DNA of 64,000 nt from a virus. Positions 42,561 to 63,340 of the stretch are shown here, one piece after another. The DNA lies in IMG/VR virus record IMGVR_UViG_3300042988_001700, positions 34,489-98,488 of that record, one strand, 5' to 3'. Every line of letters starts with the position of its first letter. The stretch's first letter is position 1. The notes beneath the pieces are model-generated. The model was not told the origin of the DNA, ran no database searches, and worked only from the letters and a program-made list of their open reading frames with translations. The position numbers were made by a program, and so were the translations under genes.

Positions 42561-42625
42561 AAAATTCCTTTCTTGTTGTTGATAAAATATAACTAATGGA
42601 AATTATAAATGCAAGATATTGTTGA

Positions 42626-45763: not shown

Positions 45764-48700
45764 TTAATTATTCCTCCCCTTGTATGTTAAATTGTACCAT
45801 GCGTTTGCTCTTCCGAGCTGTCTTAACTCGCGCGGAGCCAGGGAAGCTATAAAGTGGTTCCTGTATTTGTCCGGCAACGCGGCTAAAGGATCTGCGTTTC
45901 GAATGCTTGTGCTTATGCCATCTATCGTACCTCCTGCTTTAAGGTATTCTTTAAGCCAACGTATAGCTGACTTCTGGTCTTTATACACTATCGATTTCTT
46001 ATAATAATATAGTGCATTCGCCTTGTTTGTTGGGTCATTTTGATTGACTTCATACTTGTTGTCGTCAAGGAATTTATAAACCTTTGATTTTATCTCCTGA
46101 TAAGCCGCTTCGCCGGGATCTGTGATATAAACAACGGCAGTCGGAATACTGTTGATAAAACCCTTGCTTGGTTTTCCGGCAAGATACCTATACGGGATAT
46201 CCATAGCCATCGTTCTCGCAACATTCTCCCATGGATCTCGTATCGGGGAAGGATTAAAAACATTCGGGTAAAAAGATTTCTTTGTCAATAACTCAACGGG
46301 AGACTTGATCATTGGCGTCAAAGATGTCCCGATTCTCTGGAATGGGGCAACCGCCGCCTCTTTGATCATATCAGAAAACTTCTTGGAGCCGCTTGCAAGG
46401 TCCGAAACGTCATAGGGCAGGTCTTCTAAGCCTATCCACGAAAGCGCGTCAGAAAGCGCCCCTTGGAATCTTAAGGAGGCAATTGTCCCATCGCTTCTTC
46501 GTGACGTCAAATTTCCGTTCGCCAGCTCTTCGATATTCGGCAATAACAAGTGCGCTTGCCGTCTCCGCTGCATAAGCTCTTCTTTTTCGTCATCCGGGAA
46601 TAATTGATTCCAAAGCATGACCGCTGCATACAGAGCGCCAGCTTTAACCATAAGCATTGCCGAAGAGAATGCGGCGTTCTTCCCAAGAATTGCTGCGCTC
46701 GTAAGACCAAGTTTCGCGGTCCTGGCTGCACGGGTTTTTGAATCACGGTCCCCTTCGTGCGGAGCGTTTTGCATTAGGCGATAGTATCTTGGTGCGTTTA
46801 TTTCAAGCCAGCTATAAAACGGAATTAGGTACCTTCTAAGCCACTGGCCGCCTTTCGATATGTTGCCGTAGTCTCCAATAAGCTCACGCGCCAGCTTTGC
46901 CGCCTTGTCATCTTGGTCTGTGATTTTTTCTATCGCCAGCCTGTTGGATGCGCCGAACGTAGTATCGGGATACTTCTTGAGATGATCGACAAAAAATCTA
47001 TAAGCAGCAAGCCTCAAAATATTTTCTCTCCATTGAGTGAAATTCTTGGTTGTCTGCCAATATCTTTCGATCATACCGACTTTTTCTCCCGAGAGAATCT
47101 TAAGGAACATGTCTTTGTTCAAATCAGTTATCTCGCTAACCGAAAGCCCGGAACTTATTACGCCTTTTTTGATAAGTTTCAACATTTCTTCTGTCGGTGC
47201 TTTCCCCTTAAGATTGTAACCCCAAAGGTCTTTTGCTGCTTTTTGAGCATAGGCCATTATTTTTGGGTCATAAGCCATAGCGATATCCAAATCCCCAGAC
47301 ATATTATTGATATTGTACTTAATAACACTCGGAGGATTGAGAAGTCTCCAAATTTTCCAAGAATTTTGGATTTTTTGAAGTGCTTTCGCTATAAAATTGT
47401 CAATCGGGAAATCAACAACCTTGTCAAGCGTAGCTGCAAGTTCTGACGGCAATGCCCACGATTGGCGTTTTCTCAGGGCAAGCAATGTCTGAAGATCCTG
47501 TTCCTCTACAACCTGGCTCCCATTTTGATCTATTTGAGAAGCAATTTTGTCAGGAATAGTTGTCGCTTCGTACATTCCAAACCCTCTCTTTGGCTGCCAT
47601 TCGACATATCCTTCAGGTAAAATGTCCTGCCATTTCTTAAATTGTGCGCCGGTGGTAGATTTAATCAACTCTTTTCTTTGGCTAATTGCCTTGAATATCA
47701 TTCCGGCGTACTGTGAACCATCAAGCCCCTTGTCCATTAAATAAGAAAGAAATTCCCACCAATCCTCGTCAGATCCGGCAGTGGAATCGACATCCATTTC
47801 AACGCCACTTTTTTTAGAGAAGTATCCGCTTGACAACTTCTCTATAATCAAACTGTATTCTGGTGCATCTATTTCATCCTTTGATGCCATTTTTTCAAGC
47901 TGACTAACAGCAATGGCAATACTTTTTCGATACGGCATAAATGGATCGAACATGTCGTAGTCGGGCGATTTTTCGTCTATTCCGGCTGCCTTTGCCAATC
48001 TCTTCTTTGTAAGTTCATTATTCATTTCAGTAGCATCTTGCTTCAGTTGGCCAGATATATCTGCCACCATTTTCATCTTTTTGAGAGAATCTGCCGCTTC
48101 GAGCAATGCTATTCCTTGGGCAACAACCTCAAATTCAGATTCGGTATATTTCGTGTTGTACGGCTTATCGTATCCAACGCGACCGTTCTGCCAACCTTTT
48201 CTTTTGGTCCTGAAGTCAGAAGAAGTGGTTCCAGTTGTAAGATATTCCTTTGTTTCCATAGCTTCAATAACTTGGTGGTGGAAATATCTATCATCCTTTA
48301 ATACGTCTTCATGCAAGAATTTCTCTCTAACTAAAGATTCCCTCAAGTCCCTCATAAATCGATTTCTTAAATCAAGAGCATTAGAAATATCCGGATTAAG
48401 AGCAGCAAGCCGCATAGCCTCTTTATTATCAGCCTTGACATCGTCAATGCTTTGGTATCCAAACGGAAGCTTCTTTGGTGTTCCGTCAGGAAATGTATAT
48501 AATCCGGATTCGATGTCTTTCAGAAGATCGGGTAGTATTATGTTTCTTTCGAAAACAATCTGCTTTTTAGGACCCATCCCGGCGATAATGCCTTTTACCA
48601 CATTGTATGCACTCGCCTTTGAGAATTCTGGAACAGACTCAAAGTGCCTTAAAATATCTATCTCTCGCGCAAAAACAACCGGGTCAAGAAGAGGATAGTG

Positions 48701-51700
48701 GCGTGTCATATCGTTTTTGGCAGTCGTAATAGCCGCCATTGTTTTAGCGTAAATGGTATTCAGGTTCTTTTGGAGACCACGGGATTCATTCATTATTTTG
48801 TCAACGTTTTCGTCAACCGACTTGAACCCGCCACCTTTGATATTATATTTGGCTCTCGGTTCCCACAATTGAGGGGTATTTTTAATGTTTTTAATTGACT
48901 CACCATTATTAGTGCTCGATCCACGCGCATCTCCAAAACCCAAAACACCAATTTTTCGAGCGCTATCATAAGATCCGTCTTTATAAACATAAACAATGTC
49001 ATGTGTTATATCATATTCCGGTTCAGAAGACGACCGAGTGCTTTTAATTATTCTCGAACCAGTCATAAAAATTTTTCTATCATCGGTTGCAATAACTGCC
49101 CAAGTCCCACCAGATTCTCTTACTCTCTGATAGACTCTGCTTGGAGCTAATTGCTCTATTCCTTTTATTGGATACCAAGCTACAACCATATTTTGATTGT
49201 CTAAAACAAGAAGACTTGTATGGTTTTCTCCCTGAAAAGTATCGCGTGTTAAGTTGGCAACGTCGATAGCCTGTCTTATTTGTGGTCGATTTCTTGTCGC
49301 TTCGTTAAAGTCTTCTTTTGGTATATCAAAACTTATTGTTTGAGCAGTAGGTAATCCTCTGTGATCAATTTCTTCACCAATAAACAAGAATCTGTCATGA
49401 TCAAGAACAACATGCCCAGAAAAACCGGGAATATTATTTATAAAATATTTTGTTATAAACTTGTCGGGATCGCTTGCTTCCATTCTACCTGACGGGTGAT
49501 TATGAACAATGAAATACTTTGTTGCTCCAAGTCTTTCCATTCTATTTTTTATAATGTAATTATTTGCAGAAAGACCAGTTCTGGTTCCTACTACAGAACT
49601 ATTTGTCAAACCAGAAGACATTGCGTTATGCGCAAGAATTTTACCGTTATCATCAGTATAAATAATGTGGAAATGCTCAATTCTTGGATGGCGGAACACA
49701 GAAAACATATTGGCAAGTTCGGTCGCATTATTTATTACCCTGCCGCGAAAATCGATTCTTCTATGTTTCTTCCAATCCCCGCGAACAGTTGTTGCGCCAG
49801 CCTTACCGAGAACAGGAGAAATAGGCGATTTAGAAAATTGGTTTTCTATTTCAGTATTTGCTTTTTCAACTTCCTCTTTCGACCCAAACACTATTTCAGT
49901 ATCATTTTTCGACATCGGGGTTCCAAAATCCAACTCTGTTTGCACACCCCAATCTTTCAAGAACTCCCTTTGTTCGAACAGCGATTGCCCATTATAAACA
50001 ACGTCATTTTTAACGGCGTCATTAATGGCTATCGATTGCTGCGAAACGCCAGTGCCGATATTGATATTCTCAACCTTCAAACCCCACGGCTTTCCGTACT
50101 TTTCGTAAAACTGAGAAATCTTTTTATCATAAAGATTATAAGCCCAATCTCCACCGACACTAAGGCTTTCGCCGTCCAGCCTTGTCCAATCCCTGTATGC
50201 TTTATCTTTTACTTTTGTGCCTTCCGAATTAAATATTCTTTTTGAGATATCTTTTCCAAGAAGACGAGACACCTCTTCAATGCTTAAATCCTCTTTATAA
50301 ATGCCGTCGTTTTCGTCTATGTGTGGTGCATCGATATTATAGGTTTCATCGTCGTTCTTTTCCCAATCGATATATTTTACCTGCTTTTGCAAGTCATATC
50401 TATCTGCTGTCTGCCTTCCAGTTATCCACGAAACTTTGTCGTATCCATTTTCGGATGCGTAACGCAATGCAAATTTGAGAACAACGTCCATCCAGTTATT
50501 TGCGAATGGCATAGGAAGAACACCTGGGCCATAAGACTTTTTGAATTTTTCAATAGCCTCTTCTCGCGTATCTCCAGTTACAAAATCAATACCAGATATA
50601 CCGGCTCTCCACTTATCTCCAGACTGAAACACCCTATCGGGAACTCTATTTGTTGCTGCCACATTCCCTTCGCGCAATTCTTGGGACCATTTTGACTGTA
50701 TTTCCTCAAGGAAGAGAACTTTGTTTCCTTCGCTATCGGTTCTATCGTCCATGCGAATGTGGGCATAAACGTTTTTTCCGAGACCATGTGGTTCATCGTA
50801 TTCAGCAAACATTCCAAATGTGTCTTCTGGCAACGAAAGAGTAACTTCTTTATAATTTTGATATCCCGGCAATGTTAGATCGTCGTATTTGTTGGGGCCA
50901 TATTTCGTTTTTCTTGGTTCATATTTATCGTACCATTCTTGTGCAAATTTTTTTGCAGCATTAACATCAGATTCATTCTGTATAAATTCTTTATTATAAT
51001 AAATAGCAAAAGAATCTTCCAATTGCCCAATCTTTCTGATTTTTATACTCAAATTTGTGTTCGAGTAAATAATAGGGCCACTAAGTTTATTTGGTTCTTC
51101 CCATTCTATTTTTGGTATATCATAATCATTAACGGCTATTTTAGAATCAATCATGTTTCCGCTGATGAATTTAATTATTTCGTCTTTTGTGACCGATTCT
51201 TTTCCTGAAAACTCTTGAGACAATCCAATCCAATCAACCTCCGCTTTTTTTACTCCGGGCTGATTGAGAATCATAGCGACAAGCTGACTTCCAGTTCCCT
51301 TTTCCTGTTTTAAGTCTTGTGCTGCACGGAGTAGGGGAGAATAAAAATAAGGAACGGCAGACCGATACTCTTCGACCGAAGCGTATTTTTTAATCTTTTC
51401 AGGATATTTTGCGGGAAGCTTTTCGCGCATTTTGTTTAGTCTATCACCAACGTCACGCGGATCTCGCGTATAGAACGTTCCAGTCGTAACTGGATCGGAA
51501 AAAGACAAAGCAACAACCCGGTCAGCTATTCCAAGCTGGGGGCCATCAAAATGTATTCCGTATTTGTCGGCTGCTTGCTTTGCCTGTTCAATAAGACCCT
51601 TGTCAAGCTCGCTAAACTTTCCTTCTTCTGAAGCCATCTTTTCTGCGCGGTCTTCTTCGTAATCAACAATATCGCCATAAGGACTTCCCGGCTCGAACAT

Positions 51701-54700
51701 AACACCATTTTGATTCAAGAATCCTTTAATATCCTCTTTCGATACGGTCTCGTCGCCTTTGCTGGAAAGATAATCTGAAAGTCCAGTGAATTTCATTTCA
51801 TCCATTTTTGTTCCGCGACCGCTTGAAGGATCGAGCATCTTGAGCCACTGGCTTGCGGGAGCCTTTGGCATATCGATAGAATTGACTGCTTGCATAGCAT
51901 TGCTATACAATGATTCTCTTGCGCCATAAGAAGCGCCAGGTTCTCTGAACATGTTGGCGGTATCGGTTGAATATTCGCCACTATTATTTGTAGCCGACTT
52001 TATTTGTTTTGGATTAAAAGCAATATAGACATCTGACAACGGGGCACGCTTGGTATCTGTGTAAGTGTCTTTTGTGTTTCTGATTATTATTCCGTCATAA
52101 CCATTTTCTTTTGCAAATTCAATCTGTTCTCTTTGAGCCTTCGGACCCCCGCGCTTTCCCCACTCAACGCCGCCAGCGTCAATAACCATTGGGTTCTTAA
52201 GCGAAAGATATACTCCAAATACACTTGGCTCTGCGTTTTGATAATCAAAAGCCATTTTGTCATTAGCGTATGTTCTGGCAGTATTGTTGTGGTTTGTAAA
52301 AAAATACGCTCTTTCTTTTAATGTATTAGTCTGTCCTTCGGGAGAAAGAGTGTCAAAATATTGTTCTTTAGCGGTTTTAAACACCCCGTTTTGTTTTACG
52401 TCTCTTGCGTCAGGAGTTCCGTGATAAACAACCAGCGGCATGCCTAAATCATCAACGACTTTACTTGCTGTTTCCGAATTTGATTCCCAATCGCCAAACC
52501 ATTTTTTAAACTCTGTTGATTGAATATCTCCGCCATAAGAAGCGCCAGGCTCAAACAGGCTCAACTGTTCTGTTCCGCCAACTATTCCGGCACCACCTTC
52601 GAACATAGGAAGGCCAGTAACGTCTGGCGATCCACCGATACGCTTTTCGTTTTTCTTTCGAATCTCAGCGGCAATAGCTTTTTGAACAGGGGTTCGCTTA
52701 TCCTCAAAACCAGTTCCAGAGAATAAGTCACCGGTTTCGTACTTTGATTTTGGCTCCTCCGTAATTAGATCGTCGTTGACTAACCCTTGATACGGGCTAA
52801 TCATTTTTATCGTTGCGCCAATTTGAGGAAGGCTATCGTCAATGAACTTGTTGACATTGTCCTTTGCCTTATTTGATGATGACGACGGCGCGTCGGTAGC
52901 AGTAAGGTCCTTGACTGCCTTATGGACAAGAATCATTTCTTTGATAGAATTAATTCCAGCTTCGTCTTCGAATGGAATAAACCATTTTTTATTCCAGCTA
53001 CTAATGTATTCGCTAAACGCCCCGTATCTTTTGAGTTCGTCAAGATTAGGAGACCATAAATTTCTAAGCTCAATACGCGGCTGGTTGTGAACGTTAACCG
53101 GCGCTATTTGCCATCCGTTATCAAGCTCAACTATTCCATGGTCGTACTTCACAAGATTAAACAGCTCTACTGCCGACAATTGCGAGAAAGAATTCCCAAT
53201 ACCAAGCCTTAACTTTATACCGGCAATTTGTTTCTGTTTAAGGCTTATGCCAAGATATGTTTCGTTATCTCCAGTTGTTGCCTGAACAACGGTCTGTTTT
53301 TCGTGAGAAGCAAAAGCAGAATCGTTGTCAATTTTTTTAGGATAAATCTTATCGTAAATTGGATAAATAATCCCGGTAAGAATAGTATGCTTTTCCGTTG
53401 TGTATTCAGGAATTTCACTTAGTTCCTTTTCCCAAAGAACCTCCGCGTCTCCGCGATTAACTTCCATGAGACCATGATTAAACTCTTCGTTATCCAGACT
53501 ATGTCTTATTCCCTTTGGATTCGTTAGCTGATATACTTCTTTCTCTATTCCATTTGTAGTAATTTTTACCGTAATAACAGAGTATATTCTTTTGCTTTTA
53601 ACGTTCTGATAATATCCAACCCAATAATCAGTGAAGTCTTGAATATGAGAAACCTCGAACGACAATTTATTGCTTGGAACCTCACCGGCCAAGTATACCA
53701 AGTGCGTTTTTGCCTTCGAAATTGGATCTACATAAATCAATTCGGCAGGCTTGTCTATTCTAAGGTTCTTTGCACGTATCTTTTGAACACCAGAATCGAA
53801 ATTTCCCTTTGCTTTAGCGTTTGCAATATTCTCTTGGTATTTTTCATAAAACTTTTCAAACACTTCATTTTGGCGGCCAATTGGAAGAACGAGTATTCTA
53901 TTAAGAAATTTATCTACAGTTACGTCTTCTTTCGCCTCTCCCTTTTTGTTTAACAAACCCATTTCGGCAAGCGATTTTCTTGAAAGTCCAGTAATGACGC
54001 TTTGTAATGCGTTTTCTCCGTATTCGTCGGTAAGATCCTCTATTGAGAACATTCCACCACCAAGAGACTCTCTGTTCCCGCTGGTCATAGCGCCAAGGCT
54101 GGCAAGCCTACGAGACACTGCATTAACAAGTCTTTCTTGTCCCTTGATATCTGTTTTAACCAGCTTAATAATCGGCGGGACTTCTTGGTTTGATCTATGA
54201 ACCCTACCAAAAACCTGCATCTGAGTGTCTGCCGACCATGATAATTGCATTGCGTAAAATACGCGCTGCTGCTTATTTTCTGCCTTTTTATCGGAATGAA
54301 GCGATATCCCGGTGGATGCCGCTGCCGATATGATTGCTACACGCTTCTTTCCGCTCTGAAACTGCTTAGTTTCGTACTCGTTGACATCCTTCGACGTTCC
54401 ATTCTCGTTTATTCTTCTGACATATTTTTGGTTTTTACCAACACCTTCAAGCCTCATTTTCCTTCCGGATATTTCAGCAATATTATCGGCACCAAAAGCA
54501 TTGACAATCCTATCAAAAGGATTCGGAGGAAGGTTCAAGTTTGAAATAATCTCAAGAAGTCTTTGCTGTTCCTGAAAGTTTTCTCTGTTTATTACCGGTT
54601 CCCCTTGCGCGTCAAGCTCCATAACTGTTTCGTCTTTGCCGGTAACAATGTTCTTTTGTGTTACATATTGATATATCGGAAAACTTGTTTTTACCATGCT

Positions 54701-57700
54701 GGCAATCATGTCTTTTGAACTAAAATCCATGTCGTCAATATCTTCAATTCCACTTGCCTTTGCTGCGGCAACGCTTTTCTTGGTCAGTCCCTCGTTCGTG
54801 CTAAACATGCTGATAACAACTGAGCGCCCTGCCGCAAGCTGTTTTTTTGCGTCATTAACAACCTCGTCATACTGAAGAGAAGTCATTAACTGCAAAAAGA
54901 ATCTCTGTTGAGTAGAATAGAACGCCGTATAATGTCCAGATCCTTTTTTCTTTTTCTCACCCGAATTTTCGGCAGCATTCTCAAACGCAACCAATAACTT
55001 CGACCACAAATCCGCTGCATCATTATATACGTTTCGCTCTCCCTCGGTAACGTTGTGCTGTATTGTCTCAAATTTTACCCCGGCATAGCTAATTGATCTG
55101 CTTATATAAGATCCTATAGCCTTAAGGTCTCTTGTAAGCGCCTCCATTGCGCCAAGCCCACCGCGCGTCATAGCTGTCAGGAAATCCATGAAATCAGTAA
55201 ATGGAGCACCGGCACCCCACATTCCAAGTCTACTTAAATAAGCCATGTTTCGCGCAACCGTAGCAGACGTAGCCGACATATTGAATATGCGTGCGTTCTT
55301 ATACGCTTTTTTAAGCATAAGACCGACATTCCCGCGCTCTGAACCTGCCTTTGAACTTGCCTCTCCGCCGATACCAGCACCAACGGCGTTTTTCATAAAA
55401 TGAGATTCGTCGAAGACAATAACGCCGTCGAAGTCGTCTCCAAGCCAATCTTGTATTTGCTTCAATCTCGCCTGAGTAGAAATTCCATTTTTATCTTTTT
55501 CGCTTCCCGACATAAGTCCGTATGACGTGAAAAGTATTCCGTCTTTATCTGGTAGCTTATCCCATGTTTTTGTATCGGCCTGAGAAATTACTTCCATTGG
55601 AACGCCTACGTCTGAAACGTCTCGTTCTGCCGAAGGCTTTAAATCAAAATTAACACTAATCCAAACTGCACGTTTTCTTCCGTGCATGAAATTATCATAA
55701 ATAACACCTACAGCGGTCCTACCTTTGCCGACCCCTGTAGAATCGCCTAATAAGTACTCCGCGCGTTCGCCACTTAATAATCTTTGGTTGTGTCTTTGCC
55801 CTGCATATACGATAGCCTCCATCTGAACATCAGAAAGCCTTCCCTCTTCGATAACTTCCTTTGGGATCTTTGGGGTATAAACGACATCGGGAGCCTCTGT
55901 CGCGGCAAGCGCCGTAGATTGAACGATGTTTCCCGGGTGTTTTATTGTTCCTTCAATTGTGGCTTTTTTGACAACGTAAGGAGAGTATTGCGAATCTTCC
56001 TCTTGCTCTACGTCCTTTACTCCGCCACTTCCTGGAACGCCGCTCGTTCCGTTGCCTGGCCCCACTGGACTAAGCCCATCGCTAACTGCATCGCCCATGC
56101 GCGCATCGATGATTGGTCTGTCAGTTGATTCAGGACTTCCGCTTTCGCTTGTTCCGGAAATTGCTCCGTTAGGATCTCCAATACCGCCCCGTGTATTCTT
56201 GGATCTTCCACTACCAGATCCCACTCGTCCTGTATCTCCAGAAAGTCCGGTTGTGTCTCGTTCTCCAAGAGAAGATCCATCAGGGGGATTAACGACGTTG
56301 TCTGATTGGCTGCGAAGTTTCTTTTTGTTAGATCGAACATTGCCGCCAGCTTTTCCTTTGCTACTTGATCCAGCTTTTCCGCCAATGCGTTCATTTATGT
56401 CCTCCTCTGCGATATCTTTTAACAGGTCTATAGTTCCTTCAGGCGTTAGTCCTTCAGATCGAACAACATTCGCCATTCTTTCATTTCTATTCATTCCGGG
56501 AGTCGGACCCGTTTTATCGATAATCAATATTTGATTGTCGAATCCGGTCCCGTATTTTGCGTAAGCCTTTCCGTCTATACCGATATTCGCCCGAACGTCG
56601 TTTTTCTGCTCCATCTTATCCCACCACGCACTAAACGATGGTCTTTCATGTGCCATTCCGCGACCAACGATGGCAACTAACCTACCACCATCCCTTACCC
56701 TGAGAAGGGCGTGCGTTACATGGCTTGCGCCAACTTCGGTATTATGGGAAGCTGTTCTTCCTCCGGTAGCAGAGAATGGAGGATTCATTATAACGACATC
56801 GGCCATTATTGTCTGAGGAAGATTGTTGTTCAGCTTTTCGGCGTCAACGCTATACGTTTCGAACCCCTGCATATTCAACAATCCAAGTCTTCTTGGAGAT
56901 ATCTCATTCGCTACAACCTTCGCACCGGCAATGTGCGCCATTGTCGCAATATTCCCTGTCCCGGCGCTTGGTTCTATAACGGTCATGCCTTTTGATACCC
57001 CGGATGCCCAAACAGCTATAAACGCCTCCGCTGGTGGCGTGGAGAACTGTTGGAACTCAATCTGTTCTTCAGTACGGTCAACTTGCCTCGGGATTATATC
57101 ATTAAGATCGTTAAGTCTCTTTACCGTATCTTCTGGGTTGCTGAAATCGACGATTCCAGATTCGAGTATGTATTCATTGATAGCGACTTCAAGAGCGTCA
57201 TACATGTCCCTTGGATCGTATGCGCCATCTCCCCGGGTTCCGCCAAATGAGCTGTCTGCCATTTTTGTCAACTGAGGATTCCCAAATTTTACACCGGTAC
57301 GAAGTTGCTGCTTAATAGTCTCGATCAAAGCACCGGTTCCGGGAACAACGTTTTTATCGTCTACCCGCGAAATAGGAACGTTAATAGGAGGTTGATTTTC
57401 TTTTTTGTCTCCACCTACTTTTGCGTATGTTGGAACGAAATTTTCGTAATCGTAGAATAATGTGCTTCCTTTAAATTTTAATTTCGCCGATCTTCCCGAT
57501 CCTATAACTTCTTCAACCTCTAATACATCAAGTTTGAAAAGAGTAATAGGAATTCCAACGTTCTCTCTTGCTTTCGCCAAGTCTCCAACTTTTGGCGTCC
57601 ACTCTTTAAGCATCGCCTGTGTTCTTGCGATATCTTCTTGAACCAAATCTGGATTTATTTCAACATCGTATGTCTTTTGGAAATCAGCAATACTGACATT

Positions 57701-60700
57701 CCAGTCTTGAATAAACCAATTGTTACCAACTTTATTTTTAACAAAAACCTTTTCGCCGATTACATCTATTCCGGTTAGAATGTATTTGTTCCCGTTAGAA
57801 CGAATAAATTCATCTCCAAATCCAATAGTTTTCTTTTCTTCTTCTTTAGGAACTTCGATTATTTTGTCAACATTTATAGCATGCTCGTTATCAACGGAAT
57901 AATCGTCAATCAATCTGTCTTTTGCCATTTTGGAAAGAACCTTTTCAACATCAGGTTCATCCTTTACGTCAAAGTCCCAAGTTGAACTAACTGAATTCCA
58001 CCTTCTCGGAATACCGTATTTTAAAAGGCCGCTCTTCAACGCTTCAGTAACTTGTTTTCCGGGATATTTCCCAAAAGTTATTCCTCTTAAGTCCAACACA
58101 TTCATGTGTGGATGAATAGTTGCAGATACTCCAACCTTCTTAACTTCTGGTTTTTCTACCTTCTTCTCTTGTTTTGCGACGAAATTTGACAGCAAAACGC
58201 CATTGCGCGGATCTATTCCACCATTAACCTTGTAGTAGGCGTCGTAAGACATCTCGACAACTTTTTGAAAACTTGCTTTAGCGGCTGATTCCGGAATCAT
58301 TTCAGCTATCATTTTTGCGATAGAATCAAAATTTGTCATTCCGCCTTCGATCATATCTGCAACGGCATCGAACGCAAGGTCTTCGTCTTCCTGGGAAGCC
58401 TTTTCGTATGAAGCACCTGGCTCTTTTAATGAATATTCAGCCGGTTCCTCCTGCATCCTATCACCAAGTTTTTTGAATTTCTCCATTGCACGCTTAATAG
58501 ATTCGTTCTGTTCGGGAGAAGCCTCTTTTTCAGTTTTACCATGAGAGGGTTTGGCTACTATTATGTGTTTATCAATGAAATCTTTTTGTGATTCCTTTTC
58601 TGTTTCTTTGCTAAACGGCTTTCTGAGAGTTATCTTTCCTTCCAGAATACCATGTCGTACCCTATCTGATATGTCCTGTTTTAAAAGCCAAGAAGACATT
58701 TCTGGCCAATCTTTTCCAAGATCATCCTTGAGGCGATCAATGTCAATCGGCCTAAGCGTTTCGGGAGAATCGGCCACTAACTGAAGGCGCGACAAATAAT
58801 TCATCTTTGGAAGCGGAAGAAGCGCATCTCTGCTTTTCGTAAGATTGCTTTTGTCTTTTGACGACTGAGCTTCCTCTTCCTGCATTCTCTTTAATTCCGC
58901 ACGAGCTTTTTCTCTTGGGGTAAGTTCTTTTTTGGCTGGTTCTGGTATCTTTGTCAACGATTCGTCTAATTTTGTATTTGTTGACTTTTCAAATTCACCA
59001 ACACTTTTTGCCATGAAAACCCTTGAGACAACCATACCTTTAAGAGATAGGTCAATTGCGTTTATGTTAACAGATCCGTCTTCGCTTACAGAAACGCTCT
59101 CCAGCCTATATTGTCGTCCATTAAAATCAAATTTAGATCCTATAGATATCTCTTGTGGCTTTCTTAAGCTTTCCTCTTGGCTTTTTGTTAGTTTTTTGAG
59201 CTGTTCCGGCCTTACGGTTACGAATGGATCTTTAATGTCGTCGTGAAATTTTACATTTATTACATCGTCTTCGGTTTCATCAGTTGAACGCATAAAGCCA
59301 TAAACAGTTCCAAGTCTCCCCAAATATTGAACCTTGTCTCCTATCGAATACTCTCCAAGAGTAAATTTTTTTACGTCTGGTGCCTTTTTGGTAAAAACTT
59401 TCGACAGGGAATCTTCTTGTTTTTGCTGTTCGGCAGTCGGTTTGTTTTCTGCGGCTTTGTCTTCTTTTTTATTTGAATAAGTTTGTTCTAAATCAAGGTT
59501 TGTTAGTCTGGAAAATTTCTTTTTTGCCCAATCAATCAACTCGACATCCGTAGGATTGTGGGCATCGGTCCAAACCTTTAACATTGTTCTATACGCTGTT
59601 GCGTGTGATCTGTCGTATTCTTTCCCAATTGCATCCGTAATCAACAAATGAACTTCTAGTGAGTGTTGTTGTTTTTTTGCTGATTCTGGGATTTTAGTTA
59701 AAGATTCATCTGTTTTTTTCTTTTCAAACGGTTTGCCGGTAAACAGCGCCTTTGTTCCCTTTAGCGTTCCCGGCAATTTTACACCGGTAATCTCAGTAAA
59801 CAATTTCCTACTATTCTTGTTAGTCAGATGAAGAATATCGCCATACTCGCCAAGAGCAATAGCTTTAAGAACCTTTTTTGCTGCAATCTTTGAAGGCTTT
59901 TCGCGGATTTCTCCACCTGTTTTATCGACAAGCCATTGCGCCCACTTATCAATCTCTGCCTGGTCGGGAACATATTCTTGCTTTGCAACTTCTTCCCCCT
60001 GGGCAATACCCTCTTCTATAGCCTTTTTAGCATTATGAGAGGCATTCTTGTACATCTCTGCTATTTCGTCACGATTTGTAACAGCATCGATAACTAACTG
60101 TCTGAAAGAATCGTAATCCCCGGGAATGAGTTCTTCCGACATTCTGTTTTCTTCTGTCCAGACGCGCTTTCCTTCGTCGGTGGAAAAGTATTCGGTAAGT
60201 CCTTTGAAGTATTTCCTTTGCTCCGGAGACATTCTGCTTTCGCCAAGGTCTTTTATGGCTTGCTGATATTTCTTTCCGGTAACGTCGCCAAGATTAAAAG
60301 CGTCTCTGAACGCAAGATTTAGATCGTACTTATATGCCTCAAAGTTAAGATCGCTTAACTCTTCATCATTAAGATTGTCCGTCTTAAAAGCGGATCTTCC
60401 GGAAGACCGTATTGGTCTATTCCCGGTCGATTTAACGATGGCGGCATCGTCTGTTTTTGCTTCTTTTTGGATTTCTGGCGCAACAGTCGCTTCGCCTTCA
60501 CTTGGGAGGCGTACTCCGGCGTCACCGGCTCCGGTTCGCTGTAATTCATTTTGTACTGTTTCTGTTCCATTCCTTTTTCCTCCTGACCATGTTTGTGAAC
60601 GGCCACTTTCCTTTGCCTTATATAATTGTTCGTCTGCATTAGAAATTCCAATTCCGTGACCAGCCGAAAATGTTACTCCCGTAAGCTTCCCGTCAGCAAA

Positions 60701-63340
60701 TTCCTCCTTTTTAAATTCGTCTCGCAACGAATCAATTCTATTTAAAACTTCGCCTATTGGCTTATCGGTAGTTGGAACTATCGCAAATTCTTCCCCGCCC
60801 CATCGCCCGGCGATATATTCACCATTTGAATTGTCATTTAAAAAATTACCAAGCGACTCAAGAACCTCGTCTCCAACTCCATGACCATAAGTGTCATTTA
60901 CACTTTTGAACTTGTCTACGTCCAAGATTATGACATCTGATTTATCGACGCTTTTGCCTATTTCGTTTGCCTTTGTCTCAAGCCCTCTTCGGTTAAACAT
61001 TCCGGTAAGAGGATCAACTGAAGCTATCTTCTTTTCTTCTTGATGTGCAGCGTGCAGCTTTGCGTATTCTGCGGCAAGCTGATCGGGTGGCAACTGAGAT
61101 ATCTCTTCAGGAGAAAGTATCTTTGTTGGCTCTTTCTGTTCCTGTGCATTAGAACCGGAAGTCGGTTTTTCTATTTGATTTTGAACCGTACTTCCTTCAT
61201 CCATCCACGCCAAAAAGTCATCGTGTGTTTTTTCTGGATTGGCATCCATGTAATCAGTAAAAAGCCCAGCATACTTGTCGTTTATTGCAAGCCTTTCTTC
61301 TGGTGTCGCCGTAGCTATATTTTTTGAAGCATTGGCAACTTCATCGCGACGAGCGGTTAAAAGGTCCGGAGTAGCAGGCCCCGGCTGTGGTGTAGCAGCC
61401 TGTGGTTGTTCTGCCGATTGTCCGACGGCAGAAGGTGGGGCCTGTTCCGGAGTGGTTGGCTTTCCAATAGTAATATTATGTGGAACATCTGGTTTATTTG
61501 CTATGTGTTTTGAAATTCCTCCACCAAGTCCTATAAGTCCCAATATTCCCATTGGACCGGCAGCCCCACCGACTTCTTGGACATAATTTTTAAGCAACTG
61601 CGGAAGAAGCTCTCCAACATCCTTACTCGAAACTCCATCGGTTTGCTTCCCTATTTCAACACCTATGTCCGTTACAAGTCTTTGCATCCCCTCTTCGTTT
61701 ATTTCCTTAAGAAAATCTTTGCCTTTTTCAACAGCAAGTTTTCCGACAACTTTCGCTATACTATCTCCAATTGCTTTTTGTGTTATTTTTCCACCAAGAT
61801 TAGTCAATTGTTTTAATTGTATTTTTTCAATTGCAGCATAGATTATTCCTGTTAATGGAGCAATTTCTCTGGCAGTTTCAAAAGATACCCCGGATTGCAC
61901 CATTTGATCTGAAGCGTCGCCAGCACCCTGGATAGCCCATTGCGATAGCCCAATAGCAGGGCCAACAACAGGAATAGAAGAAATTGCAGCTGTTTGCACC
62001 ATCGGGGGAAGCATTTCAATTGTTTGCAAAATGAGATTTTTAAATGCGCCGTTCTTTTTTGTTTTATCTTCAATTTTAACAGTGTTTTCGTAATCACGCA
62101 TTAATTTTTGCATTTTCAAAAAGGAATCTTTGTCTCCAGCGTAATTATATCCACCCATAGCTTTTTGAATTACAAAAGAAATATCTCCCCTTTCAAAAGC
62201 GTTAGCATATTCATTCCCGCCACTTTCTTTTAATTGGTTTATTCGGCGTTCTATCTTGGGAATTTTTAAAATGATAGGATCAAAAGCTTTGGCACCTTCA
62301 GAGTAAATTTTTTCTTGTTCAGATGAAAATTCAGATATTTTCTTTTGGTCAATTGATTTTTGGAGCCTTGAAAGATTGAAATCAATATCATCCTTAACGC
62401 TGTTTTTGATTTCTGGTATTGAAGAAATCTTTTTCCACCCAACGTTTTCATTCGCCAATTCAGATTTCCTCGAAACAAAATTACCATCAGCATCTTTAAA
62501 ATCATCAATGGAAACGCCGTATTTTTTTAGGTCTTTCTTTAATCCACCGGTAGCGTAATATTCTTCATACCCGCTACGCAACTTACTCGTTTCTTTTTCT
62601 CCATGATAAATTGAAGCAAGTGCCGTTTGTGTTGCAGCCTCAAGCGGATCTTTCTGGCCTTTTGCCACAACCATCTGAAGGACTTCTTTTTGCTGGTCGG
62701 GTGGAACATTTTCAGAAATTAGTTTGGCGTGCTCCGACGACGGGTGTGAAAAAATTTGGTCGGCTGTCTTTTCCAAAGCGTAGGAAGGAGTATCGGTAAC
62801 AGTCTCAACAGGCTTGCTTACTTCTTTTGGCAACTTAACGCTTATATTTTGGGCAGGAGAATAAACTGTTTGTGGCTTTGTTACTTCTTGCGGTACAACT
62901 ATTCCGCGCCCTCCACCGGTTCCCGAAATAAGATCGAAATCACTTGTGTCATAGGTTGGTGGCTTTGGGCGAGAAGCCTCTTGTTGCAACGCCGTTTGTC
63001 CCTTTAGTTGAATATATGGTGAAACAGTCTCCGCTGGTGGCATTGCGCTTTTTTTTGCAATATCCTCTTGCGCACGCATAGCGGCGTCGCTCATTACTTC
63101 CGCTGAAATATTCCATGGATCAACCGGTTCTGGCTGTGGTGCCGGTGCGCTTTGTACGGGAACAGGAGATGGTTTTGAGGGAGGAGCGCTTGCTATTGAA
63201 TCAAGATATGCGAATTCATCGTCATTTATTGAGGCCGAAATTGGCTGTTGAATATTTTGTGTTGTAGGCGGAGTGGCTCCGCTTGCAATAGAATCTAATG
63301 ACGCAAACTCTTCATCGGAGATCGGTGTATTGATTGCCAT
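45764..63340 (-). CDS. giant polyvalent (DarB-like, probably virion-injected) protein, 5858 aa
   Basis: GGDEF (~60590-61020), N6-MTase (EPSAGTG, NPPF 56774-56785), strawberry-notch-type SF2 helicase (GDSTGVGKGR, FDESH, GRVHRSNQ), ART-like (VYHGT...QIKSA), EEIQS domain, JAB/RadC (HNHPSG), helical C-terminal region. Confidence 0.9.
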   Translation of the reverse strand: MAINTPISDEEFASLDSIASGATPPTTQNIQQPISASINDDEFAYLDSIASAPPSKPSPVPVQSAPAPQPEPVDPWNISAEVMSDAAMRAQEDIAKKSAMPPAETVSPYIQLKGQTALQQEASRPKPPTYDTSDFDLISGTGGGRGIVVPQEVTKPQTVYSPAQNISVKLPKEVSKPVETVTDTPSYALEKTADQIFSHPSSEHAKLISENVPPDQQKEVLQMVVAKGQKDPLEAATQTALASIYHGEKETSKLRSGYEEYYATGGLKKDLKKYGVSIDDFKDADGNFVSRKSELANENVGWKKISSIPEIKNSVKDDIDFNLSRLQKSIDQKKISEFSSEQEKIYSEGAKAFDPIILKIPKIERRINQLKESGGNEYANAFERGDISFVIQKAMGGYNYAGDKDSFLKMQKLMRDYENTVKIEDKTKKNGAFKNLILQTIEMLPPMVQTAAISSIPVVGPAIGLSQWAIQGAGDASDQMVQSGVSFETAREIAPLTGIIYAAIEKIQLKQLTNLGGKITQKAIGDSIAKVVGKLAVEKGKDFLKEINEEGMQRLVTDIGVEIGKQTDGVSSKDVGELLPQLLKNYVQEVGGAAGPMGILGLIGLGGGISKHIANKPDVPHNITIGKPTTPEQAPPSAVGQSAEQPQAATPQPGPATPDLLTARRDEVANASKNIATATPEERLAINDKYAGLFTDYMDANPEKTHDDFLAWMDEGSTVQNQIEKPTSGSNAQEQKEPTKILSPEEISQLPPDQLAAEYAKLHAAHQEEKKIASVDPLTGMFNRRGLETKANEIGKSVDKSDVIILDVDKFKSVNDTYGHGVGDEVLESLGNFLNDNSNGEYIAGRWGGEEFAIVPTTDKPIGEVLNRIDSLRDEFKKEEFADGKLTGVTFSAGHGIGISNADEQLYKAKESGRSQTWSGGKRNGTETVQNELQRTGAGDAGVRLPSEGEATVAPEIQKEAKTDDAAIVKSTGNRPIRSSGRSAFKTDNLNDEELSDLNFEAYKYDLNLAFRDAFNLGDVTGKKYQQAIKDLGESRMSPEQRKYFKGLTEYFSTDEGKRVWTEENRMSEELIPGDYDSFRQLVIDAVTNRDEIAEMYKNASHNAKKAIEEGIAQGEEVAKQEYVPDQAEIDKWAQWLVDKTGGEIREKPSKIAAKKVLKAIALGEYGDILHLTNKNSRKLFTEITGVKLPGTLKGTKALFTGKPFEKKKTDESLTKIPESAKKQQHSLEVHLLITDAIGKEYDRSHATAYRTMLKVWTDAHNPTDVELIDWAKKKFSRLTNLDLEQTYSNKKEDKAAENKPTAEQQKQEDSLSKVFTKKAPDVKKFTLGEYSIGDKVQYLGRLGTVYGFMRSTDETEDDVINVKFHDDIKDPFVTVRPEQLKKLTKSQEESLRKPQEISIGSKFDFNGRQYRLESVSVSEDGSVNINAIDLSLKGMVVSRVFMAKSVGEFEKSTNTKLDESLTKIPEPAKKELTPREKARAELKRMQEEEAQSSKDKSNLTKSRDALLPLPKMNYLSRLQLVADSPETLRPIDIDRLKDDLGKDWPEMSSWLLKQDISDRVRHGILEGKITLRKPFSKETEKESQKDFIDKHIIVAKPSHGKTEKEASPEQNESIKRAMEKFKKLGDRMQEEPAEYSLKEPGASYEKASQEDEDLAFDAVADMIEGGMTNFDSIAKMIAEMIPESAAKASFQKVVEMSYDAYYKVNGGIDPRNGVLLSNFVAKQEKKVEKPEVKKVGVSATIHPHMNVLDLRGITFGKYPGKQVTEALKSGLLKYGIPRRWNSVSSTWDFDVKDEPDVEKVLSKMAKDRLIDDYSVDNEHAINVDKIIEVPKEEEKKTIGFGDEFIRSNGNKYILTGIDVIGEKVFVKNKVGNNWFIQDWNVSIADFQKTYDVEINPDLVQEDIARTQAMLKEWTPKVGDLAKARENVGIPITLFKLDVLEVEEVIGSGRSAKLKFKGSTLFYDYENFVPTYAKVGGDKKENQPPINVPISRVDDKNVVPGTGALIETIKQQLRTGVKFGNPQLTKMADSSFGGTRGDGAYDPRDMYDALEVAINEYILESGIVDFSNPEDTVKRLNDLNDIIPRQVDRTEEQIEFQQFSTPPAEAFIAVWASGVSKGMTVIEPSAGTGNIATMAHIAGAKVVANEISPRRLGLLNMQGFETYSVDAEKLNNNLPQTIMADVVIMNPPFSATGGRTASHNTEVGASHVTHALLRVRDGGRLVAIVGRGMAHERPSFSAWWDKMEQKNDVRANIGIDGKAYAKYGTGFDNQILIIDKTGPTPGMNRNERMANVVRSEGLTPEGTIDLLKDIAEEDINERIGGKAGSSSKGKAGGNVRSNKKKLRSQSDNVVNPPDGSSLGERDTTGLSGDTGRVGSGSGRSKNTRGGIGDPNGAISGTSESGSPESTDRPIIDARMGDAVSDGLSPVGPGNGTSGVPGSGGVKDVEQEEDSQYSPYVVKKATIEGTIKHPGNIVQSTALAATEAPDVVYTPKIPKEVIEEGRLSDVQMEAIVYAGQRHNQRLLSGERAEYLLGDSTGVGKGRTAVGVIYDNFMHGRKRAVWISVNFDLKPSAERDVSDVGVPMEVISQADTKTWDKLPDKDGILFTSYGLMSGSEKDKNGISTQARLKQIQDWLGDDFDGVIVFDESHFMKNAVGAGIGGEASSKAGSERGNVGLMLKKAYKNARIFNMSATSATVARNMAYLSRLGMWGAGAPFTDFMDFLTAMTRGGLGAMEALTRDLKAIGSYISRSISYAGVKFETIQHNVTEGERNVYNDAADLWSKLLVAFENAAENSGEKKKKGSGHYTAFYSTQQRFFLQLMTSLQYDEVVNDAKKQLAAGRSVVISMFSTNEGLTKKSVAAAKASGIEDIDDMDFSSKDMIASMVKTSFPIYQYVTQKNIVTGKDETVMELDAQGEPVINRENFQEQQRLLEIISNLNLPPNPFDRIVNAFGADNIAEISGRKMRLEGVGKNQKYVRRINENGTSKDVNEYETKQFQSGKKRVAIISAAASTGISLHSDKKAENKQQRVFYAMQLSWSADTQMQVFGRVHRSNQEVPPIIKLVKTDIKGQERLVNAVSRRLASLGAMTSGNRESLGGGMFSIEDLTDEYGENALQSVITGLSRKSLAEMGLLNKKGEAKEDVTVDKFLNRILVLPIGRQNEVFEKFYEKYQENIANAKAKGNFDSGVQKIRAKNLRIDKPAELIYVDPISKAKTHLVYLAGEVPSNKLSFEVSHIQDFTDYWVGYYQNVKSKRIYSVITVKITTNGIEKEVYQLTNPKGIRHSLDNEEFNHGLMEVNRGDAEVLWEKELSEIPEYTTEKHTILTGIIYPIYDKIYPKKIDNDSAFASHEKQTVVQATTGDNETYLGISLKQKQIAGIKLRLGIGNSFSQLSAVELFNLVKYDHGIVELDNGWQIAPVNVHNQPRIELRNLWSPNLDELKRYGAFSEYISSWNKKWFIPFEDEAGINSIKEMILVHKAVKDLTATDAPSSSSNKAKDNVNKFIDDSLPQIGATIKMISPYQGLVNDDLITEEPKSKYETGDLFSGTGFEDKRTPVQKAIAAEIRKKNEKRIGGSPDVTGLPMFEGGAGIVGGTEQLSLFEPGASYGGDIQSTEFKKWFGDWESNSETASKVVDDLGMPLVVYHGTPDARDVKQNGVFKTAKEQYFDTLSPEGQTNTLKERAYFFTNHNNTARTYANDKMAFDYQNAEPSVFGVYLSLKNPMVIDAGGVEWGKRGGPKAQREQIEFAKENGYDGIIIRNTKDTYTDTKRAPLSDVYIAFNPKQIKSATNNSGEYSTDTANMFREPGASYGARESLYSNAMQAVNSIDMPKAPASQWLKMLDPSSGRGTKMDEMKFTGLSDYLSSKGDETVSKEDIKGFLNQNGVMFEPGSPYGDIVDYEEDRAEKMASEEGKFSELDKGLIEQAKQAADKYGIHFDGPQLGIADRVVALSFSDPVTTGTFYTRDPRDVGDRLNKMREKLPAKYPEKIKKYASVEEYRSAVPYFYSPLLRAAQDLKQEKGTGSQLVAMILNQPGVKKAEVDWIGLSQEFSGKESVTKDEIIKFISGNMIDSKIAVNDYDIPKIEWEEPNKLSGPIIYSNTNLSIKIRKIGQLEDSFAIYYNKEFIQNESDVNAAKKFAQEWYDKYEPRKTKYGPNKYDDLTLPGYQNYKEVTLSLPEDTFGMFAEYDEPHGLGKNVYAHIRMDDRTDSEGNKVLFLEEIQSKWSQELREGNVAATNRVPDRVFQSGDKWRAGISGIDFVTGDTREEAIEKFKKSYGPGVLPMPFANNWMDVVLKFALRYASENGYDKVSWITGRQTADRYDLQKQVKYIDWEKNDDETYNIDAPHIDENDGIYKEDLSIEEVSRLLGKDISKRIFNSEGTKVKDKAYRDWTRLDGESLSVGGDWAYNLYDKKISQFYEKYGKPWGLKVENINIGTGVSQQSIAINDAVKNDVVYNGQSLFEQREFLKDWGVQTELDFGTPMSKNDTEIVFGSKEEVEKANTEIENQFSKSPISPVLGKAGATTVRGDWKKHRRIDFRGRVINNATELANMFSVFRHPRIEHFHIIYTDDNGKILAHNAMSSGLTNSSVVGTRTGLSANNYIIKNRMERLGATKYFIVHNHPSGRMEASDPDKFITKYFINNIPGFSGHVVLDHDRFLFIGEEIDHRGLPTAQTISFDIPKEDFNEATRNRPQIRQAIDVANLTRDTFQGENHTSLLVLDNQNMVVAWYPIKGIEQLAPSRVYQRVRESGGTWAVIATDDRKIFMTGSRIIKSTRSSSEPEYDITHDIVYVYKDGSYDSARKIGVLGFGDARGSSTNNGESIKNIKNTPQLWEPRAKYNIKGGGFKSVDENVDKIMNESRGLQKNLNTIYAKTMAAITTAKNDMTRHYPLLDPVVFAREIDILRHFESVPEFSKASAYNVVKGIIAGMGPKKQIVFERNIILPDLLKDIESGLYTFPDGTPKKLPFGYQSIDDVKADNKEAMRLAALNPDISNALDLRNRFMRDLRESLVREKFLHEDVLKDDRYFHHQVIEAMETKEYLTTGTTSSDFRTKRKGWQNGRVGYDKPYNTKYTESEFEVVAQGIALLEAADSLKKMKMVADISGQLKQDATEMNNELTKKRLAKAAGIDEKSPDYDMFDPFMPYRKSIAIAVSQLEKMASKDEIDAPEYSLIIEKLSSGYFSKKSGVEMDVDSTAGSDEDWWEFLSYLMDKGLDGSQYAGMIFKAISQRKELIKSTTGAQFKKWQDILPEGYVEWQPKRGFGMYEATTIPDKIASQIDQNGSQVVEEQDLQTLLALRKRQSWALPSELAATLDKVVDFPIDNFIAKALQKIQNSWKIWRLLNPPSVIKYNINNMSGDLDIAMAYDPKIMAYAQKAAKDLWGYNLKGKAPTEEMLKLIKKGVISSGLSVSEITDLNKDMFLKILSGEKVGMIERYWQTTKNFTQWRENILRLAAYRFFVDHLKKYPDTTFGASNRLAIEKITDQDDKAAKLARELIGDYGNISKGGQWLRRYLIPFYSWLEINAPRYYRLMQNAPHEGDRDSKTRAARTAKLGLTSAAILGKNAAFSSAMLMVKAGALYAAVMLWNQLFPDDEKEELMQRRRQAHLLLPNIEELANGNLTSRRSDGTIASLRFQGALSDALSWIGLEDLPYDVSDLASGSKKFSDMIKEAAVAPFQRIGTSLTPMIKSPVELLTKKSFYPNVFNPSPIRDPWENVARTMAMDIPYRYLAGKPSKGFINSIPTAVVYITDPGEAAYQEIKSKVYKFLDDNKYEVNQNDPTNKANALYYYKKSIVYKDQKSAIRWLKEYLKAGGTIDGISTSIRNADPLAALPDKYRNHFIASLAPRELRQLGRANAWYNLTYKGRNN

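Follow-up and report, generated by a model that had tools for sequence, protein, structure and literature searches.

An EPGASY-like sequence as a probable junction peptide between modules of a giant phage polyvalent protein

An EPGASY-like element that recurs along a giant protein of an uncultured phage is probably a selected inter-module junction peptide, situated in the disordered linkers of one sub-lineage of polyvalent proteins. The element marks the edges of autonomous cassettes, namely the ART domain, a small helical module, and the C-terminal module. Among relatives, whole cassettes are inserted, deleted, or moved, and the breakpoints lie within the peptide or at its edge.

Motif copies and modules of the giant protein

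The window analyzed here is a stretch of 64,000 nucleotides of the phage genome. The features on which the analysis rests are listed below, largely in the reading direction of the giant open reading frame.

45764-63340, minus strand: giant open reading frame of a phage polyvalent protein (P0001; 5,858 amino acids), from the open reading frame list with its translation and from Pfam.
58406-58447, minus strand: double motif EEPAEY-SLK-EPGASY, residues 1632-1645 (EPAEY at 1632, EPGASY at 1640), with codons unlike those of the other EPGASY copies.
52739-52756, minus strand: motif LITE-EPKSKY, residues 3529-3534, an extra copy overlooked in the first-pass annotation.
52553-52738, minus strand: Gly-rich spacer of 62 residues (ETGDLF...GLPMF...QLSLF) between two motif copies.
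52535-52552, minus strand: motif QLSLF-EPGASY-GG, residues 3597-3602, the upstream bracket of ART; coil in the AlphaFold (AF2) model, pLDDT below 50.
52531-52549, plus strand: 19-nt direct repeat, copy 2; its minus strand codes for PGASYG.
51944-52534, minus strand: ART-PolyVal cassette, residues 3603-3799 (197 amino acids; Pfam E=3e-18, match 3630-3789), folded in the AF2 model.
51926-51943, minus strand: motif NMFR-EPGASY-GA, residues 3800-3805, the downstream bracket of ART; coil in the AF2 model.
51922-51940, plus strand: 19-nt direct repeat, copy 1, flanking ART.
51695-51925, minus strand: small helical module, residues 3806-3882 (starting ...SLYSNAMQAV), between two motif copies; helices in the AF2 model, with homolog alignments ending at 3880-3883.
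51677-51694, minus strand: motif GVMF-EPGSPY-GD, residues 3883-3888, at the right edge of the high-identity block in common with contig L003.
49961-49984, minus strand: degenerate motif GQ-SLFEQREF, residues 4453-4460, with the large conserved domain on one side and RadC on the other.
49439-49729, minus strand: RadC-like JAB domain whose JAMM signature is intact (Pfam E=2.3e-11; NCBIfam RadC; JAMM regular expression).
48845-48862, minus strand: motif PQLW-EPRAKY-N, residues 4827-4832, immediately preceding the C-terminal module.
45767-48844, minus strand: conserved C-terminal module, residues 4833-5858, with 2,133 cluster representatives at E<=1e-3.
41493-43618, minus strand: genes for an Erf-like single-strand annealing protein and an exonuclease (PHROG E=2.7e-33 and 7e-37).

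P0001, a chain of ~650 kDa, contains GGDEF, Sno-type helicase (AAA_34 and Helicase_C_4), ART-PolyVal, and RadC domains by Pfam, together with a methylase (MTase) and the C-terminal module of ~1,000 residues. At least two disparate activities are thus joined on one polypeptide, as in the polyvalent proteins that phages and conjugative elements encode. The portal, capsid, and terminase genes are present in the same genome, and the class-signature family PF18760 (ART-PolyVal) scored 67.4 bits, above its cut-off of 31.2. No LPD family in Pfam rose above threshold in P0001, and no further Pfam, PHROG, or NCBIfam domains were found in its unannotated segments. The MTase and AAA_34/Helicase_C_4 module is like that of P1 DarB and other Sno-type methylase-helicase antirestriction proteins, for which capsid delivery is expected; in P0001, however, the module is one of many in the chain, and the comparison leaves the motif unexplained.

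The C-terminal module was C-terminal in the inspected relatives, behind variable N-terminal cargo, and was free-standing in some. It had no match in Pfam, PHROG, or NCBIfam, while its ESM Atlas neighbors bear LPD38/LPD39, which is a lead only. The arrangement is like that of the "tail-700" PLxRFG domain (NCBIfam NF032893; about 700 amino acids), a conserved C-terminal module behind variable cargo in giant phage proteins, but homology between the two was rejected, as no similarity was detected by BLAST or NCBIfam. GenBank records of cultured phages yielded neither a DNA match nor a match to the C-terminal module, only distant ART matches, and a search of IMG/VR for close relatives found none.

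When recomputed on the minus-strand open reading frame, all motif and 19-mer coordinates of the first-pass annotation proved correct. The pattern EPxxxY occurs six times in P0001, compared with 0.68 expected from composition; EPGASY occurs three times, and a 6-mer repeated at least three times was seen in none of 200 shuffled sequences. The degenerate SLFEQREF aligns to SLFEPKSDY in P0008 and to QSLFEPESEY in P0043. EPEY at residue 4773 was dropped as a family member because its Pro is not kept in L003. EP[LM]VVY is a motif inside the ART domain and is no linker. Five of the seven copies in P0001 are concentrated within residues 3529-4832.

Motif copies coincide with the edges of cassettes

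The motif had been described as bracketing the modules of the giant protein, with copies at domain boundaries. This was overstated for the first 3,500 residues, where at least four domains are accompanied only by the double site at 1632/1640, but it holds for the ART, small helical, and C-terminal modules. Among 115 homologs, 37% of alignment ends fell within 10 residues of a motif, compared with 8.6% under random placement (P=5e-4). In the AF2 model, the three motifs around ART are coil with pLDDT below 50, lying between folded units. For ART, 35 homolog alignments start at residue 3606, with ends at 3790-3809 or 3883. The free-standing ART P0332 (204 amino acids) begins at the cassette start, and both it and the free-standing C-terminal module P0120 start just past the motif position.

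The claim that the ART-like domain lies between identical 19-mers was borne out. The 19-mer, which codes for (E)PGASYG, was found exactly twice, with none expected, and the repeat-to-repeat unit around ART measures 609 nt, or 203 codons, and is in frame. Given the codon usage of the open reading frame, the probability of the same codons at both ART-flanking sites is about 7e-4, and this DNA identity suggests a recent event. That ART is a recently gained foreign cassette was unsupported by composition (GC of 0.40-0.42, as in the flanks).

Relatives differ by whole cassettes at the motif

Domain swapping at the motif, as had been proposed, was supported by insertions and deletions among homologs in two lineages (P0118/L003 and P0008/P0360). 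P0118 reads QLSLFEPGAAYG-ARESLYS, without ART between the two motif copies; a single ENA protein, seen at the amino acid level, provides this arrangement, and it could conceivably be an assembly artefact. Contig L003 reads ART-NMFQEPGASYG-ARESLYS and is 100% identical to P0118 downstream. Homology between P0118 and P0001 begins at LITEEPK, upstream of which another ART in P0118 takes the place of the helicase-module tail found in P0001. The Gly-rich spacer is identical at the amino acid level in P0118 and aligns with a spacer in P0111. In the second lineage, P0008 has ART directly ahead of the C-terminal module, between two motifs, and in P0360 two motif copies enclose an additional module of ~290 amino acids at a place with just one copy in P0008. 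Furthermore, a DNA block of P0001 that is 91-97% identical to L003 stops at EPGSPY, while identity elsewhere is about 75-80%. Breakpoints in linkers could also reflect mere selection for foldable products, with the motif not promoting recombination.

The motif is conserved as a peptide in one lineage

Across 33 instances taken from six carriers, the motif has the consensus [LVI]-x-E-P-x-[AST]-x-Y-G-K. Its E, P, and Y do not vary, while x positions change between the window and a relative that is 81% identical (S to A twice, S to N, and R to K). Most copies, and all of those in distant carriers, keep the peptide (E-P-x3-Y-G) with different codons or on unrelated DNA; because the copies conserve the peptide with different codons, the motif appears to be selected as a peptide.

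The motif is specific to this lineage. A role general to polyvalent proteins was rejected, with 55 EPxxxY instances overall compared with 52 expected, and no enrichment was seen in the C-terminal module family (34 compared with 45.6 expected among the 150 representatives listed). Some relatives have DIRF-S or G-x-P-L-F junctions at the equivalent places. No account of such a junction motif was found in the literature.

Candidate readers of the peptide

Since E, P, Y, and G are strictly conserved while the codons are free, some protein would be expected to read the peptide. The most likely reader would be a peptidase parting the modules after packaging or delivery, and cleavage at the motif is plausible; candidates are a cis-acting RadC/JAB peptidase, a host protease, or a binding role.

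Processing of polyvalent proteins into separate domains was predicted by Iyer, Burroughs, Anand, de Souza, and Aravind in 2017 (PMC5512222), with zincin-like peptidases proposed as the processors; that paper describes no junction peptide and never uses the term "linker." P0001 is like the proteins described there in joining disparate enzymes (ART-PolyVal, RadC, methylase-helicase, and GGDEF) on one phage-encoded polypeptide of the kind predicted to be packaged and injected. It is unlike them in having a defined junction motif where relatives differ by modules and in showing no sign of a zincin: HExxH occurs nowhere in P0001, and a zincin peptidase in cis was rejected on that ground. A published virion-borne example of a polyvalent protein is gp47 of phi24B (bioRxiv 10.64898/2026.04.10.717836).

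The leading candidate reader, and a candidate only, would be the RadC-like JAB metalloenzyme of P0001 itself, the sole peptidase-like domain found in the protein. Its JAMM (E ... H-x-H-x7-S-x2-D) reads IEHF ... HNHPSGRMEASDPD, with HNHPSGRMEASDPD at residues 4613-4626, while its Pfam and NCBIfam RadC matches fall under the full-length cut-offs of the NCBIfam equivalogs. An intact JAMM is also present in P0118, P0008, P0043, P0360, and P0374. Overall, five of seven motif-rich proteins have a JAMM, compared with 30 of 347 others (n=354; Fisher P=1.3e-4, for proteins that are not phylogenetically independent). The motif is absent from most RadC-bearing homologs, and P0111 has five linker motif copies without a JAMM. 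AF2 modeling of residues 4440-4860, comprising RadC and its flanking junctions, gave a mean pLDDT of 31.7, too low for use. A nucleic-acid role for RadC is favored by Iyer et al. (PMC5512222), and no peptidase role was found in the literature. We consider it doubtful that the peptide is a self-processing code for the JAB domain of the same chain, by which the chain would cut itself into free enzymes after delivery.

Among the other readings, the motif would be somewhat less improbable as an uncleaved short linear binding motif, serving as a procapsid-loading handle (a packaging signal) or as a place where a host factor docks. The peptide is disordered, rich in information, and present at several points of the chain, in keeping with such a role, and QLSLF, before the copy at residue 3597, fits the beta-clamp consensus QL[SD]LF. 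The beta-clamp reading was dropped, however, as the pentapeptide is found at only one of the seven sites; no partner was identified, and the motif is missing from many other members of the C-terminal module family, which must be packaged too.

A head-maturation protease site was considered likewise, with the polyprotein packaged and then cut in the capsid into separate injected enzymes. Proteases of the T4 gp21/phiKZ gp175 type cut after Glu in L/I-x-E, and T4 Alt, an ADP-ribosyltransferase, is packaged and trimmed, as are internal proteins. The likeness to these substrates (Alt, internal, and inner-body proteins) lies in effectors that include an ADP-ribosyltransferase and in short sites whose P1 is Glu and whose P3 is aliphatic: an L-x-E pattern is apparent, as 27 of the 33 instances have L, V, or I at -2 and all 33 have E at 0. 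Against this, the complete 98.5-kb genome, which has terminal repeats, contains no match to an S77, S78, ClpP, or S49 protease, PF03420, PF04586, PF00574, and PF01343 gave no match in it, and no peptidase was matched among the open reading frames scanned around the portal and capsid genes. Elsewhere in the phage the motif is at chance level (five EPxxxY in the other open reading frames, none in portal, capsid, or scaffold-like ones), which argues against a general prohead-protease site. In addition, gp21/gp175 sites have nothing that corresponds to the conserved prime side, P-x-[AST]-x-Y-G, and the Pro at P1' in every instance is disfavored by most serine proteases. We regard such a site as unlikely.

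Sites in the polyproteins of eukaryotic RNA viruses offer an analogy only. Potyvirus NIa/TEV protease cuts E-x-x-Y-x-Q/G and enterovirus 2A cuts Y/G, the slash marking the cut. These are likewise recognition peptides of six to eight residues in linkers, containing Glu and Tyr and having a small residue behind the cut, but there is no homologous protease here, and the viruses and hosts are of other kinds.

Possible recombination at the junctions

The motif had also been proposed to be a microhomology joint. This stands for the ART-flanking pair, with its shared DNA, and fails for the other copies, in which the peptide is kept with different codons. It is very improbable that the motif acts purely as DNA, serving cassette exchange through microhomology or recombination and lacking any function as a peptide. 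The exact 19-nt repeats around an in-frame cassette, the presence or absence of ART at the repeat among relatives, and the nearby Erf-type annealase and exonuclease genes fit that role. On the other hand, the third EPGASY differs at four of five comparable codons and other copies are alike in amino acid pattern only; the copy in L003 already deviates within the 19-mer; E-P-x3-Y-G is kept in distant carriers on unrelated DNA; and drift is seen at the x positions and none at E, P, and Y. Least probable of all is a passive role, in which the motif would be a structural linker or domain cap that comes along with the cassettes and has no specific reader, for although relatives have other short hydrophobic-aromatic endings there (DIRF and PLF) that could cap the preceding domain C-terminally, four spaced invariant residues in low-confidence coil, in proteins otherwise dissimilar there, go beyond the needs of a spacer.

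Under the favored reading, a selected junction peptide, all cassettes have this in-frame junction in common, so that recombination between copies would give in-frame, foldable products, and the effector repertoire could be reshuffled in this way. Unequal crossing-over is one conceivable route and single-strand annealing another; for these the phage has an Erf-type annealase and an exonuclease. The identical 19-mers flanking ART might be the trace of the latest exchange, and through them ART could also be lost precisely and in frame. A homology of 19 nt is short for efficient recombination.

Significance

Polyvalent proteins, chains of up to 15 enzymes, are regarded as the earliest weapons that a phage or plasmid brings into the cell. 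A junction peptide with whole-cassette differences among natural relatives provides a concrete grammar for the modularity of these proteins. The motif also gives precise sites for examining proteolytic processing and helps to delimit unannotated modules in giant proteins. If the RadC-like JAB domain does read the peptide, this would give a function to a widespread orphan family, and sequence-specific linker peptidase would be the first defined biochemical role of RadC. Self-processing by RadC, if true, would account for cassettes traveling with their junctions.

The giant protein and its genome

The noted copies of the EPGASY-like junction peptide lie in P0001, a protein of 5,858 residues (~650 kDa) encoded by a single minus-strand ORF. 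With the Pfam domains listed here, P0001 is a textbook "polyvalent protein" as defined by Iyer et al. 2017 (PMC5512222).

Features of P0001 (domains are Pfam matches)
45764-63340, minus strand: ORF of P0001
Residues 773-915: GGDEF domain
Within P0001: methyltransferase region
Residues 2467-3186: AAA_34 and Helicase_C_4 (Sno/DarB-type helicase)
Residues 3630-3789: ART-PolyVal domain
51922-51940 and 52531-52549: identical 19-mers flanking the 609-nt ART cassette
Residues 4538-4634: RadC-like JAB domain
45767-48844, minus strand: C-terminal module (C-module, ~1,000 residues)

The source virus record (98,488 bp, direct terminal repeats, completeness rating 100%) carries portal, major-head and terminase genes; immediately downstream of the giant gene it encodes an Erf-type annealase and an exonuclease. 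Every large ORF of the 98.5-kb genome is on the same strand. Besides the gene of P0001 there is another giant ORF (L001:5661-13349; 2,562 aa), with neither a family match nor the junction motif, and the head genes adjoin several glycosyltransferase and radical-SAM genes (G000 C1 1-34488; loci L001 and L002). The middle of the large terminase ORF (window 7689-11834, 1,381 aa) also matches primase/helicase-like and thymidylate-synthase PHROGs, which would fit insertion of inteins or homing elements. Twin peptides, DEEFASLDSIAS and DDEFAYLDSIAS, occupy the extreme N-terminus of P0001 (residues 9-20 and 40-51; window ~63200-63315), a possible tag for targeting or loading.

The motif marks domain boundaries

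On recheck, the motif and 19-mer coordinates of the first-pass annotation were all right, and an additional copy that it had overlooked, EPKSKY, was found at residue 3529. EPxxxY occurs six times in P0001 against 0.68 expected; EPGASY itself occurs three times, and none of 200 shuffles gave any 6-mer with three copies. Where this could be judged, the motif sites are domain boundaries. Among BLAST alignments of giant homologues to the ART (a set of 115), 35 begin at residue 3606, and ends fall at 3790-3809 or 3880-3883; 37% of alignment ends lie within 10 residues of a motif, compared with 8.6% under random placement (P=5e-4). An AlphaFold model spanning residues 3581-3900 (pTM 0.59) shows two folded units, the ART and a small helical module, and places the three motifs in coil (pLDDT <50). 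A free-standing ART (P0332, 204 aa) starts where the ART cassette starts, and a free-standing C-module (P0120) starts just past the position of the last motif. The earlier claim of a motif bracketing the giant protein's modules is nevertheless too broad, because the distribution is uneven: residues 3529-4832 hold five of the seven copies, while the sole motif site in the first 3,500 residues is a double copy at 1632/1640.

Two other peptides were observed. QLSLF (residues 3592-3596; window 52553-52567), which matches the bacterial beta-clamp-binding consensus QL[SD]LF exactly, directly precedes EPGASY at just one of the seven junctions and is kept in the homologue P0118. DESLTKIPE, followed by xAKK, is an exact peptide repeat (residues 1211-1219 and 1459-1467; window 59684-59710 and 58940-58966) that encloses ~240 residues in the N-terminal half of P0001, and looks like another junction-type peptide.

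Modules are gained, lost and relocated at the motif in relatives

Homologue indels do map to the motif, and natural variants support the proposal that it is a joint for domain swapping. P0118, which is encoded on a 26-kb ENA contig and is 81% identical to P0001 across 2,067 residues, lacks the ART and reads ...QLSLFEPGAAYG-ARESLYS..., precisely the product of removing the segment between two EPGASYG copies; this ART-less arrangement is known from a single protein record. The metagenome contig L003 (Ga0315289_10015403) is 100% identical to P0118 downstream, yet has the window-type ART, ending ...TANMFQEPGASYG-ARESLYS. At a second junction, a different ART lies upstream of LITEEPK(A/S)KY in P0118, at a position occupied in the window by the helicase module's tail. 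An independent lineage is represented by P0008, whose C-module is 39% identical to that of P0001; its ART lies immediately before the C-module, flanked by EPQTPYG and EPSSEYG. In P0360, a relative of P0008, an additional ~290-residue module with a motif copy on either side stands where P0008 has just a single copy.

The conserved signal is mostly peptide

Mostly, the conserved signal is peptide and not DNA. When the window is compared with P0118/L003, E, P, Y and the hydrophobic residues ahead of them are invariant, while x positions vary (S to A, S to A, S to N, R to K). The consensus [LVI]-x-E-P-x-[AST]-x-Y-G-K was derived from 33 instances in six carriers (P0001, P0008, P0043, P0111, P0360 and P0374). 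The microhomology reading is secondary to the peptide-level signal, and DNA identity is confined to the ART-flanking pair. There are exactly two copies of the 19-mer, and both encode PGASYG in the same codons (P about 7e-4 given the codon usage of the ORF); the codons of the third EPGASY (residue 1640) differ from those of this pair. The DESLTKIPE copies (residues 1211 and 1459) have six synonymous differences, and so show the usual divergence of independent copies; set against these, the zero differences at the ART-flanking joint point to a recent DNA event there. Between the window and L003, a block of 91-97% DNA identity (~residues 3641-3890; window ~51670-52420, L003:15-900) has its right edge at EPGSPY, compared with ~75-80% in the rest of the gene. 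This mosaic suggests that the stretch running from the ART through the small helical module was exchanged recently between lineages.

Candidate cleavage of the junctions

A trans-acting head protease is unlikely: S77, S78, ClpP and S49 had no match in the complete phage genome, the ORFs scanned gave no peptidase match, and the motif is not above chance in the phage's other proteins. Within P0001, HExxH is absent, and the RadC domain retains the full JAMM signature. In a set of 354 proteins, this signature was present in five of seven motif-rich proteins and 30 of 347 others (Fisher P=1.3e-4), a co-occurrence that is a lead and not a test, given the relatedness of the carriers. The later-found carriers P0360 and P0374 have the signature too; P0111 has five linker motif copies without JAMM, and the majority of RadC-bearing homologues lack the motif. 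The motif's proposed role as a protease or packaging signal is an inference, with a hypothetical reader.

Distribution of the motif across the family

Clustering at 50% identity gives 2,133 representatives for the family defined by the C-module, which has no match in Pfam, PHROG, NCBIfam or cultured phages. In the members inspected (758 to >5,600 residues) it is C-terminal behind variable cargo; it has a hydrophobic stretch, possibly membrane-spanning, and is likely a delivery or anchor module. EPxxxY is not enriched in 116 homologues (55 versus 52 expected, leaving out the internal ART motif EP[LM]VVY), and P0118 is the only motif-rich protein among the 150 C-module representatives listed. 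The corresponding junctions of relatives read ...NPDIRF-S... or ...G-x-P-L-F..., so the hydrophobic-aromatic anchor is widespread. The motif itself is not general: its E-P-x3-Y-G extension is lineage-specific.
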